From: Calditrichia bacterium
GTDB lineage: Bacteria > Calditrichota > Calditrichia > RBG-13-44-9
Assembly (NCBI GenBank): GCA_037381445.1
Contig: JARRQT010000188.1
Span: 1-20,935, forward strand
DNA: 20,935 nt
Reading direction: 5' to 3'
The position numbers and the translations under genes are program-made. Positions 475-12,730 of this stretch are shown in pieces. Below the pieces are notes generated by a model, which was not told where the DNA came from, ran no database searches, and worked only from the letters and a program-made list of their open reading frames with translations. Within the stretch, counting starts at the first letter, position 1. Every line of letters starts with the position of its first letter.

Positions 475-1827
475 TCAGACAACACCCTGATCCAGCATGG
501 CATCAGCAACTTTGATGAATCCGCCGATATTGGCGCCTTTCACATAATTCACAAAACTGCCCTCTTTGCCGTATTTCATGCAGGTTTCATGAATATTCTT
601 CATGATTCCGTGCAGCTTCTGATCCACTTCTTCGCGCGACCAGGCCAGACGCATGCTGTTCTGGCTCATTTCCAAACCGGATACGGCCACGCCGCCGGCA
701 TTGGCTGCTTTCCCCGGTCCGAACAGAATCTTGTTATTGAGGTAAACATCAATGGCGCCCGGTTCGGAAGGCATATTCGCGCCCTCTGCCACGCAAATGC
801 AGCCGTTTTTCACCAGCAGATTTGCATCCGCTTCGCTCACTTCATTCTGGGTTGCGCAGGGAAGCGCCACATCGCATTTCGCCTTCCAGGGACGTTCACC
901 TTCCCAATATTCCGCGCCGTATTTCTGGGCGTATTCTTTGATGCGCCCGCGTTTCACATTTTTGAGATCCAGCACATAGGCCAGTTTCTCTTTATCAATT
1001 CCCTTCGCATCATAAATAGTACCGTTCGAATCGGACAGGGTTACCACTTTTCCGCCCAATTGAATCACTTTTTCGGTAGCATATTGGGCCACGTTGCCTG
1101 ACCCCGATATCGCCACGGTTTTTCCCTTGAAAGACTCTCCGCGGGTTTTCAGCATTTCTTCCGCAAAGTAAACGCATCCGTAACCGGTTGCCTCCGGGCG
1201 AATGAGACTGCCGCCCCAGTTCAGACCCTTCCCGGTCAGAACGCCGGTAAATTCATTTCTCAGGCGTTTGTATTGTCCGAACAGGAAGCCGATCTCTCGG
1301 CCGCCGACGCCGATATCTCCGGCGGGAACGTCCGTGTTCGGCCCAATGTGCCGCGACAATTCAGTCATGAACGACTGGCAAAAACTCATCACTTCATTAT
1401 CGGATTTACCCTTGGGATCGAAATCGGAACCGCCTTTTCCGCCGCCCATGGGCAATGTGGTAAGGCTGTTTTTAAACACCTGCTCAAAACCCAGGAATTT
1501 TAAAATGCCCAGATTCACGGAAGGGTGAAATCTTAAGCCGCCTTTATATGGACCAATTGCCGAATTAAATTCAATCCTGAATCCTCTATTCACCTGAATC
1601 TCGCCGCGATCATCACGCCACGGGACCCTGAACATGATTACCCGTTCCGGCTCAACAATTCTTTCCAGAATGTGGGCATATTGATAACGGGGATTGTCCT
1701 GCAGGAAATCCCATAACGATTCAACAACTTCTTTTACTGCCTGATGAAACTCCTTCTCACCCTGATTTTTGGCGATCACCATGTCCATAAATGCATCAAC
1801 CGAAGAATAAATGTTTTCGCGCACCAT
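475..1827 (-). CDS. gdhA: Glutamate dehydrogenase, E. coli GdhA-like (probably NADP-specific)
   Basis: Motifs [94 protein letters not shown] upstream. Confidence 0.97.
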
Positions 1828-1880
1828 AAAAATCCTCCATTAAGTTAGATTAGATCATTAAAATATGGGCAAATTCCCAT

Positions 1881-1907
1881 AAATAAAAAATGAGGCGTTA
1901 AGCCTCA
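1881..1907 (-). terminator. Terminator-like hairpin in the gdhA upstream region
   Basis: Minus strand TGAGGC-TTAAC-GCCTCA followed by TTTTTTATTT, about 55 nt before the gdhA start. Confidence 0.5.
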
Positions 1908-2420
1908 CTGTTTTATTATCATCAACTTTTTATCGTATTCCATACAGACAATTCACATATCATGGAGAAGCTGCGTAAATCACAAGAGCTCAGACAATTC
2001 CGGAATATTTCAGACACTGTAAGAATCCACCCTTTTGTAAAGGTATAACACATTATTCAGTTCACAGATAAAACCAGCAATAGCCAGAACAGGAACATGA
2101 GACGAAGTCAAAGGGAACAGGCATATGAGCGATTTCCATTTATTATAAAATAATTTTCACAAAACAATTTATGGGCCGCTTTTAAATTTGTCAAGACATT
2201 TAGAAAAAAGCTCCTGCCGCTATTTTCAATAAATCCATAAACGGGAATTCTCATTGACATAAAATCTCCGAGGCCCTGGCATAATCTCAAAATTACCGGG
2301 TAAAGATGAATATTCATCAGATTGCCACAGCTTGCCGGAATTTTAAATGAATCATATTGCATCCATTTTCTCGCGACATTAACTTTGGTCAAAATGTAAG
2401 GTATTAGATGGAAAAGGTTT

Positions 2421-11300: not shown

Positions 11301-11393
11301 CATGTTTATGAAACTACGTTAAATCTGCTTCTCTCTTTTGCTCTTTGAGATTTTACTTTCACGTTGTATCCATTTTCGTACATACCTTATAAA

Positions 11394-11422
11394 AATCTAT
11401 AATTAAAAATACCAAAAAGCAA
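11394..11422 (-). promoter_or_regulatory. Possible sigma70-type promoter
   Basis: Minus strand TTGCTT-N17-TAGATT. The AT-rich context makes a chance match possible. Confidence 0.3.
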
Positions 11423-11443
11423 TCTCAAATATGAAGCCTGGAA

Positions 11444-12730
11444 TTACACCCATCCCCGGTCTCTGCAGGCCTGGGCGACGCGGCTGATGGCAATGACATA
11501 AGCGGCATCTCTCATGAATAATTTCCGTTTGCGTGCTGTTTCACTGACCGCCAAATACGCTGCCGTCATTTTGACATCCAGTTTGCCCAGCACTTCATCC
11601 TTCTCCCAGAAATAATTCATATTGCTCTGCACCTGTTCAAAGTAGCTGCAGGTAACGCCGCCTGCATTGGCCAGGAAATCAGGAATCAGGAAAATACCGC
11701 GTTCGTCAATCACCTTATCGGCTTCGGGCGTTGTGGGACCGTTTGCGCCTTCAGCAATAATTTTGACCCTTTTGCTGATTTTATTGACATTATCGCCAGT
11801 GATCTGATTCTCAATGGCGGCAGGAATTAAAATGTCCACATCCTGCTCCAGCCATGCCTCACCGGGAAGAACTTCGTAACCCAATTCCCGGGCTTTCCCT
11901 TTGTCGATACCGCCGAATTTATCGGTGATCTTTCTGAGTTCTTCCAACTTTACGCCGGATTTCTTCAGGAATGTATAGGAAGTCTGATCATGCTGATCCC
12001 AACTGGAAACGCAGATCACCTTGCCGCCCAATTGCTCGTACAGCTCGATGGCATACTGGGCTACATTGCCAAATCCCTGCACGCTGGCAACGGTTTCCTC
12101 GGGACGAAGTCCCAGTTCCTTCAATGCTTCGCGCACCGTGAAAATAACGCCATAACCGGTCGCTTCCGTACGGCCGAGAGAACCGCCCATACCCACGGGT
12201 TTTCCAGTGATAAAACCGGGATATTGTCCGCCGTGAATCGCTTCAAATTCATCCCGCATCCAGAGCATATGCTGCGCATTTGTCATCACATCGGGAGCGG
12301 GGACATCGTTTACCGGACCGACATTTTTGGCAACCTGGCGTACCCAACCGCGGCAGATCTGCTCCTGTTCGTGCATACTTAGATTGTGGGGATCGCAAAC
12401 CACACCGCCTTTGCTTCCGCCCAGCGGAATGTCCACAACTGCGCATTTCCAGGTCATCCAGGTCGCCAGTGCCTTGACGGTATCAACTGTCTCCTGGGGA
12501 TGGAATCGGATGCCGCCTTTTCCCGGTCCGCGTGAATCATTATGCTGCACTCTAAAGCCTCTAAACACTTTCATGCTTCCATCATCCAGACGAACCGGAA
12601 TACTGAAATGGTATTCCCGTAAAGGATTCCTTAATAAATCGCGTGTAGCGGTGTCCAGATCCAGAATATCGGCAACCCGATCGAATTGTGCCTGCGCCAT
12701 TTCAAATGGATTAAAAGCTTTGTTACCCAT
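11444..12730 (-). CDS. gdh: Glu/Leu/Phe/Val-family dehydrogenase, most likely an NAD(P)-dependent glutamate dehydrogenase of the RocG/GudB/Thermotoga-like subfamily
   Basis: GPGKGGIRFHP, MTWKCAVVDIPLGGSKGG, DVPAPDV, ITGKP, GRTEATGYG, QGFGNVA, EGANGP, PDFLANAGGV. Start placed at ATG 12730 (MGNKAFNPF) because AAGGAAAGGG lies just upstream; the ORF track starts at 12784. Confidence 0.93.
   Translation of the reverse strand: MGNKAFNPFEMAQAQFDRVADILDLDTATRDLLRNPLREYHFSIPVRLDDGSMKVFRGFRVQHNDSRGPGKGGIRFHPQETVDTVKALATWMTWKCAVVDIPLGGSKGGVVCDPHNLSMHEQEQICRGWVRQVAKNVGPVNDVPAPDVMTNAQHMLWMRDEFEAIHGGQYPGFITGKPVGMGGSLGRTEATGYGVIFTVREALKELGLRPEETVASVQGFGNVAQYAIELYEQLGGKVICVSSWDQHDQTSYTFLKKSGVKLEELRKITDKFGGIDKGKARELGYEVLPGEAWLEQDVDILIPAAIENQITGDNVNKISKRVKIIAEGANGPTTPEADKVIDERGIFLIPDFLANAGGVTCSYFEQVQSNMNYFWEKDEVLGKLDVKMTAAYLAVSETARKRKLFMRDAAYVIAISRVAQACRDRGWV

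Follow-up and report, generated by a model that had tools for sequence, protein, structure and literature searches.

The 20,935-nt contig JARRQT010000188.1 of a Calditrichia bacterium (assembly GCA_037381445.1; its whole length is here called the window) carries a cluster in which two different glutamate dehydrogenase (GDH) genes, gdhA and gdh2, enclose three paralogs resembling phosphoenolpyruvate (PEP) synthase, named A, B and C, and one calcineurin-like metallophosphoesterase (Table 1). All six genes are where a sequence-only reading of this DNA had put them, with gdhA divergent from the receiver-bearing paralog A and gdh2 directly upstream of the other two paralogs on the same strand. Our analysis shows that A, B and C are not PEP synthases, and that their link to gdh is strong, paralog-specific and present across many phyla, with a clustering far above chance. 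We give about an even chance to the interpretation that A, B and C exert sensor-gated, direct post-translational control of the paired GDH.

The sequence-only reading had suggested measuring how often homologs lie near gdh across phyla, and such proximity is borne out. We analyzed the 80 best among 964 A-type loci that were confirmed in 3 of 64 parts of the GTDB genomes, with record titles naming Bacteroidota, Acidobacteriota, Desulfobacterales, Gemmatimonadota, Fibrobacteraceae, Myxococcota, Clostridia and others. A gdh gene was found at 48 of these loci, in 36 of the 80 at a distance of at most 700 bp, and at 28 of the 36 loci with full 10-kb flanks; the GDH was of family I in 45 of the 48. 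When the neighbors of 83 loci were clustered, gdh was the sole specific recurrent neighbor, the rest being generic kinase, receiver and redox domains. In a control of 15 genomes, gdh was within 10 kb of 16 of the 21 family matches counted (55 weaker ones lie outside the count) versus 0 of 40 PF00391 matches, and four of the five misses are near a contig start with no gdh on the contig. Distant members of the family in the phylum of the L080 genome had gdh within 1.5 kb in 14 of 22 loci, as did 870-aa members in the phylum of the L035 genome in 6 of 10. Some distant members adjoin NrpR (L190, L192), GXGXG-domain (L185, L187) and also GAF-sigma54 genes.

The pairing is also specific for the GDH type. 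In the phylum of the window, a gdh2-type gene is located directly before B or C-B in all 20 regions selected around B or C matches on longer contigs (19 genomes), and the GDHs of these regions fall into a single 24-member clade (support 1.0). This clade is within 3 kb of B-clade genes in 25 of 26 loci and of C-clade genes in 10 of 10, while a further clade of 770-aa proteins is found beside another family II GDH in 6 of 7 loci. All six genes also cluster in a Terriglobia record (L038) and in the relatives L154 and L158. A B match was detected in 56 of 201 genomes of the phylum of the L038 genome, and among the best 30 loci there gdh2 was directly upstream in 16 and C in 11. Since within a single genome A and B are each linked to a different GDH, the pairing goes beyond what ancestry alone would give. 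A correlation between the B and Gdh2 trees (Mantel r 0.63, 17 pairs) was set aside as evidence because kin share ancestry. Repeated gdhA-A pairs inside a single locus were seen in L040, L047, L049, L051, L064 and L088.

Gdh2 and GdhA share 33% identity. A conserved WDQ insertion (residues 262-264 of the 446-aa ORF) marks the Gdh2 clade, as do the clade-specific residues H133, Y303 and C379, these being possible sites of modification or of cofactor specificity. A third GDH, of family II, is encoded elsewhere in the genome (contig C258, L256:1037-2323), and in L154 and L158 its clade-mates separate gdhA from A. Among the paralogs, A and C share 44% identity over the core, and B has 29% identity with each of the two; the nearest named relatives of B and C carry the Calditrichia label.

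Database entries of the family often carry the PEP synthase label, and the suspicion in the sequence-only reading that this is a misannotation proved right. The pyruvate barrel PF02896 had no match in A, B or C, and the predicted models of A and B leave no room for it; hence the three proteins are not PEP synthases. Their scores against TIGR01418 are 25-52 bits with a cut-off of 740, against NF041857 17-30 bits with a cut-off of 999, and against NF052631 43-51 bits with a cut-off of 1300. A substrate-binding domain of the type that rifampin phosphotransferase (RPH) and PigC have between ATP-grasp and His domain was not found either, as the His domain directly follows the ATP-grasp in the models. 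A, B and C thus fail membership of PEP synthase (PEPS), pyruvate phosphate dikinase (PPDK) and RPH alike. Both PF02896 matches of the genome are on other contigs. So are the PPDK-like gene, a true PPDK on contig C177, the enzyme I-like gene and the two RPH-like genes, all named from domain content and length. Two genes (C164:10829-13339 and C36:18929-21463) combine an ATP-grasp and a canonical His domain without the pyruvate barrel, in RPH/PigC-like order. The alternative of ordinary PEP synthases or PPDKs, or of proximity to gdh by chance, is supported by the database labels and by NCBIfam matches far below cut-off. Given the missing barrel, the TIGR01418 scores, the separate PPDK and the control counts, this explanation is largely refuted and we regard it as highly improbable.

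All three paralogs match PF01326, the PPDK_N ATP-grasp, and their domains were delimited on AlphaFold models of A (pLDDT 93) and B (pLDDT 82) built from alignments of 113 and 108 sequences, respectively. The residues K433, R524, E530, D531, E773, Q792, R794 and H915 of A are all kept in B and C. The catalytic roles of the dikinase Lys, Arg, Glu, Gln and Arg residues are known from PEPS and PPDK. The histidine is present in 111 of the 113 alignment rows of A and in 108 of 108 of B (H837), within a motif, SxG[ST]HFF, common to A, B and C. The sensor inputs that the sequence-only reading had named were recovered. A has two receiver folds, of which only the second has a complete phospho-acceptor set (E173 in 108, D174 in 98, D243 in 103, S277 in 104 and K296 in 107 of the 113 rows), and D243 and K296 occur in 61 of 61 Bacteroidales proteins; in the columns examined of the first receiver, the 113 rows show conservation neither of an Asp where strand 3 ends nor of a Lys. 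The helical domain that follows resembles OrfY (Z 12.0) in a structure search, and the N-terminus of B is a GAF fold (Z 12.5, rmsd 2.4, 123 residues). Several A-type proteins (L048, L079, L090, L095, L098, L104, L110; P0270, P0332) have one to three N-terminal copies of the GAF domain of B, so sensor modules have been swapped between paralogs. Of the 14 long matches examined, ten (1520-1650 aa) are C-B fusions.

The C-terminal region of A is read here, from the predicted model, as a divergent swivelling His domain. Residues 420-982 of the model superpose as one body on PEPS (2OLS 8-467; 355 residues, Z 26.2, rmsd 4.5), on PPDK (1DIK 7-511; 353 residues, Z 19.0) and on RPH (5HV3 7-866; 385 residues, Z 26.2), with 1DIK and 1KBL aligning over 353-355 residues up to position 511. 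Other entries of the same enzymes align only through the ATP-grasp, over 228-284 residues. Region 800-982 of A adds about 70-125 residues to the superposition on 2OLS, 1DIK and 5HV3, with the invariant His at a helix start. We take the extra ranges in these three structures to be their phospho-His domains, presumably docked on the ATP-grasp in the case of 1DIK. The ATP-grasp residues, the invariant His and the superposition are in line with an ATP-grasp plus phospho-His architecture, while a domain search gave no PF00391 match in the tails of A, B or C. A profile search of PDB sequences with the His domain gave weak longin-domain matches only, taken as chance, and an Atlas search with it returned only members of the A/B/C family. 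In wide structure searches the lists were filled by receiver or GAF matches, with no lone His domain among the matches listed.

B also ends in the nucleotidyltransferase that had been recognized in it, as PF01909 scores above cut-off and the GS..DxD..D motif is intact (G970, S971, D982 and D984 in 108 of 108 close relatives, D1027 in 107 of 108). The phosphoesterase has the motifs DLH, GD, GNDD, HTPP and HGHVHE with PF00149 above cut-off, and its metal motifs are present in all nine intact relatives, GNDD replacing GNH[DE]. The His of GNH[DE] favors monoesterase activity. Since the GNDD form lacks this His, the phosphoesterase fits a putative diesterase that may act on a protein-nucleoside monophosphate (NMP) bond or on a nucleotide signal. 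The two enzymes tend to occur together. In the phylum of the L038 genome, 13 of 20 B genes that include the nucleotidyltransferase have the phosphoesterase next to them, as against 0 of 10 B genes that lack the transferase. No phosphoesterase was found anywhere in the 10 genomes with a transferase-less B, and among transferase-bearing genomes with no local copy it was found elsewhere in 1 of 5. In the phylum of the window, 26 of 86 genomes have the phosphoesterase, including 19 of the 21 with C and 7 of the 65 others.

In the window the phosphoesterase appears as two ORFs (5486-5980 and 5947-6294). The gene is nevertheless whole and the split an assembly error, because the contigs of 3 of 4 sequencing runs examined have 55 extra bases at 5974/5975 and nine relatives have one intact protein of about 285 aa. 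The 55 bases, 18 codons plus one base, equal the gap relative to the intact relatives. Two of the three runs with the extra bases are from one sample, and the best-matching run may be the source of the window. A pseudogene was therefore rejected, as the missing bases are restored in these contigs.

The Bacteroides "PEP synthase" gene beside gdh that the sequence-only reading had mentioned does exist, and its mutant profile is related to 2-oxoglutarate. A-type genes were found in 119 of 131 genomes at the order level, 90 of 101 at the family level and 61 of 61 at the genus level (Bacteroides). Among 60 regions examined, 37 have gdh, in all 37 of the PRK14030 type and mostly divergent from A, and 12 of these 37 also have a PRK14031-type gdh converging on A. 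In B. thetaiotaomicron, the available part of one report lists BT1970 as GDH, BT1972 as "PEP synthase/PPDK" and BT1973 as NAD-specific GDH (PMC8121099). BT1972 is likely the A ortholog, linked by label and gene order, not by sequence. Its only cofitness partners of at least 0.8 are korB (0.82) and korA (0.82) in the part of Table S3 available, and the ten cofit genes shown for BT1970 are amino-acid biosynthesis genes (PMC8121099). By this published cofitness, BT1972 mutants behave like 2-oxoglutarate synthase mutants. The accessible part of the supplement of PMC10528517 has no BT1972 row, and the accessible text of PMC13508794 adds nothing on the gene. In B. fragilis P207, PTOS_003162 is a 2970-bp expressed gene with PPDK_N and two receiver matches that adjoins gdh, and mutants of the adjacent gdh gain fitness in deoxycholate (mean +1.04, 8 replicates) in the data available from PMC10197588. 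Mutants of PTOS_003162 show no such gain (mean -0.01) in the same data (PMC10197588), and A is therefore not needed for the effect of the adjacent GDH in rich medium. Thus the data on one species point to the A-type gene as important for balancing 2-oxoglutarate and glutamate, those on the other speak against a gene strictly required to activate the neighboring GDH, and a putative restraint of the catabolic GDH in Bacteroides is the simplest fit.

By its title, as given in the references of PMC4539542, the 1996 paper of Baggio and Morrison reports trans-acting gene(s) downstream of gdhA on which GdhA activity in B. thetaiotaomicron depends. A 3-kb segment is said to be involved, a size that fits A, with the catalase gene an equal candidate. 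In L232 and L242 the order is PRK14031 gdh, catalase, A and PRK14030 gdh, which agrees with the tags BT1970, BT1972 and BT1973. The downstream factor could be either gene, because the catalase gene separates the PRK14031 gdh and A, and we did not accept the 1996 report as proof that A activates GdhA.

In known dikinases, a phosphate from ATP passes to a swivelling His and then to an acceptor held by another domain. A, B and C would autophosphorylate on the invariant His as dikinases do, and the receiver and GAF domains are predicted to gate this kinase activity. Direct control of GDH is favored because the acceptor domain is replaced by sensors or absent, and because GDH is the constant neighbor, matched clade to clade. 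The missing acceptor would then be supplied in trans by GDH, through phosphotransfer or through binding that depends on the phospho-state, and each paralog may control its own GDH by direct contact, A with GdhA and B and C with Gdh2. The nucleotidyltransferase of B might add NMP as a mark, to be removed again by the GNDD-type phosphoesterase. The net outcome in Bacteroides would be protection of the glutamate/2-oxoglutarate supply, probably by restraint of the catabolic GDH. Covalent modification of GDH, which is one part of the direct-control interpretation, is itself a tentative proposal. The most far-reaching version is a widespread GDH writer/eraser cascade, with receiver- and GAF-gated transfer of phosphate from the His to the partner GDH, a nucleotidyl mark by B and removal of that mark by the phosphoesterase. 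For GDH it would parallel GlnE/GlnD, would occur in all Bacteroides genomes searched and might be the 1996 GdhA trans-factor; we consider it doubtful, though worth stating.

Several observations weigh against direct control of GDH. A profile of 89 His-domain sequences gave an hhalign probability below 1% against PF00391-type domains (4, then 27), and the structural match yields ranges, not residue pairs, which is why we only infer that H915 of the model is equivalent to the dikinase phospho-His. All linkage counts include kin and are not independent. A gdh is missing from eight of the 36 fully flanked A loci and from 10 of 10 loci (1.5-kb flanks) of a Bacillota subfamily of 570-760 aa in the phylum of the L035 genome, and each of the genomes G071 and G069 has two GDH matches but none to the A/B/C family. 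Many B-bearing genomes have no phosphoesterase, and the transferase is often alone. The mutant data add the missing deoxycholate gain of PTOS_003162 and the absence of BT1970 from the BT1972 cofitness matches of at least 0.8 in the available part of PMC8121099. Above all, gene neighborhood cannot separate control at the protein level from a shared metabolite or shared transcription. Members of the Bacillota subfamily (L214-L220, L224-L226) have the same His motif, with S-layer and VTT-domain genes among their neighbors.

Two explanations make use of this ambiguity. The paralogs may be small-molecule dikinases or ligases, like RPH, HpeHI and PigC, with phosphorylation or activation of a metabolite or cofactor at the 2-oxoglutarate/glutamate node, with gdh nearby as it shares the pathway. 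The closest solved folds are indeed small-molecule enzymes (RPH, PEPS, HpeI), BT1972 is cofit with 2-oxoglutarate synthase rather than with GDH in the cofitness data available, and some members that have no gdh adjacent lie by other nitrogen genes, such as the NrpR and GXGXG-domain genes noted above. However, no acceptor-binding domain is evident, and the N-termini are sensor folds that differ between paralogs. A shared metabolite also predicts neither the clade-to-clade pairing with GDH nor the doubled gdhA-A pairs within one locus, and we find this explanation unlikely. Only slightly less unlikely is a signalling relay in which the phospho-His passes its phosphate to the receiver Asp of A or to a separate regulator, the B transferase and the phosphoesterase make and break a nucleotide signal, and the target is gdh expression or a second messenger. 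The canonical second receiver of A fits such a relay, as do the lack of a specific histidine kinase family recurring beside A, the often divergent arrangement of gdhA and A, and the NrpR or GAF-sigma54 regulators flanking some members. Yet B, C and the 770- and 870-aa clades are linked to gdh with no receiver match, A, B and C have no DNA-binding domain, and no regulator recurs in the 83 clustered loci. Direct control of the paired GDH is the interpretation we prefer.

A, B and C are similar to PEPS, PPDK, RPH (2OLS, 1DIK, 5HV1/5HV3) and HpeI (9GOJ) in having an ATP-grasp with catalytic residues and a superposable His-domain region. Unlike these enzymes, they have no pyruvate barrel or recognizable acceptor domain, their His domain falls outside PF00391, and they have fused sensors and a link to gdh. 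At the nitrogen-assimilation node, GlnE and GlnD likewise provide a nucleotidyltransferase bearing GS..DxD..D motifs together with a hydrolase, and their targets are glutamine synthetase and PII. By comparison, B has a minimal MNT-like domain fused to the dikinase core, the candidate eraser is a separate calcineurin-like protein, and the gene partner is GDH. Control of bacterial GDH at the protein level is known for GarA and APRTh. The GudB-GltAB counter-enzyme complex is a paralog-specific case, according to the part of the report available (bioRxiv 10.1101/2021.04.12.439528). All three are examples of control by binding of unrelated proteins, none of them an ATP-grasp/His enzyme. The nearest functional parallel is VadK (Rv1127c), a truncated dikinase with ATP-binding and His domains that autophosphorylates on His, pulls down metabolic enzymes and has a proposed role in regulating a metabolic enzyme through binding, as far as the accessible part of the source describes it (PMC13400623). 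VadK has two domains and methylcitrate-cycle targets in that source, whereas the A/B/C family has REC, GAF and nucleotidyltransferase domains, a paired phosphoesterase and a tie to GDH. We found no description of the A/B/C family in the literature covered, which leaves out most subscription journals. New here are the six-gene form, the pairing of B and C with Gdh2, the finding that transferase and phosphoesterase tend to occur together, and the structural argument for a His domain.

The order of the cluster is gdhA(-), A(+) and phosphoesterase(+), followed by the converging B(-), C(-) and gdh2(-). The longest ORF of gdh2 begins at 12784, and the ATG at 12730 is the probable start given a purine run resembling a ribosome site. 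Half-sites TGTCACA and TGTGACA are present at 12870-12960, upstream of gdh2. A conserved TGT[CG]ACA box 5' of gdh2 was rejected, being present in only 2 of 24 upstream regions. No RNA data sets covering the window were listed. The remainder of the window (13304-20914) encodes a dephospho-CoA kinase, a 1287-aa subtilase with FG-GAP repeats, an acidic TPR protein, LptE and a sigma-54 activator.

Table 1. The gdh cluster in the window (nucleotide positions) and the domains of its three paralogs (residue positions).
Feature	Position	Strand	Basis and remarks
Terminator-like hairpin 3' of gdhA	426..451	-	consensus match only
gdhA, family I GDH (NADP-type model)	475..1827	-	PRK09414, 781 bits (NCBIfam cut-off 536)
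Paralog A, 985 aa	2421..5378	+	PF01326; predicted model; gene divergent from gdhA
Calcineurin-like metallophosphoesterase	5486..6294	+	PF00149; 55 bases lost in assembly at 5974/5975
Paralog B, 1063 aa	6296..9487	-	PF01326, PF01909; predicted model
Paralog C, 586 aa, core only	9484..11244	-	PF01326; 4-base overlap with the start of B
gdh2, family II-like GDH, distinct clade paired with B	11444..12730 (or 12784)	-	ORF, profile match, tree
Domains of A	pseudo-receiver ~21-158; canonical receiver 166-315; helical DUF5752/OrfY-like 316-402; ATP-grasp 420-800; His domain ~805-982		D243 in canonical receiver; H915 in His domain
Domains of B	GAF 10-146; helical region; ATP-grasp 345-715; His domain; minimal nucleotidyltransferase ~940-1060		H837 in His domain; G970-S971, D982, D984, D1027 in nucleotidyltransferase
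Domains of C	ATP-grasp and His domain only		H522 in His domain

The family is very common, with about 19,000 genome stretches estimated from 3 of 64 parts, and through the "PEP synthase" label metabolic models acquire a reaction that is false. Mutants of the gut ortholog and their phenotype are already on record, which makes the idea testable at once in a standard commensal, and the A-type gene is a candidate for the old observation that GdhA of B. thetaiotaomicron depends on downstream trans-acting gene(s). GDH is a main point of ammonium entry and exit in Bacteroidota and many anaerobes, where its tuning is poorly known, and the A, B and C proteins may be part of that tuning.

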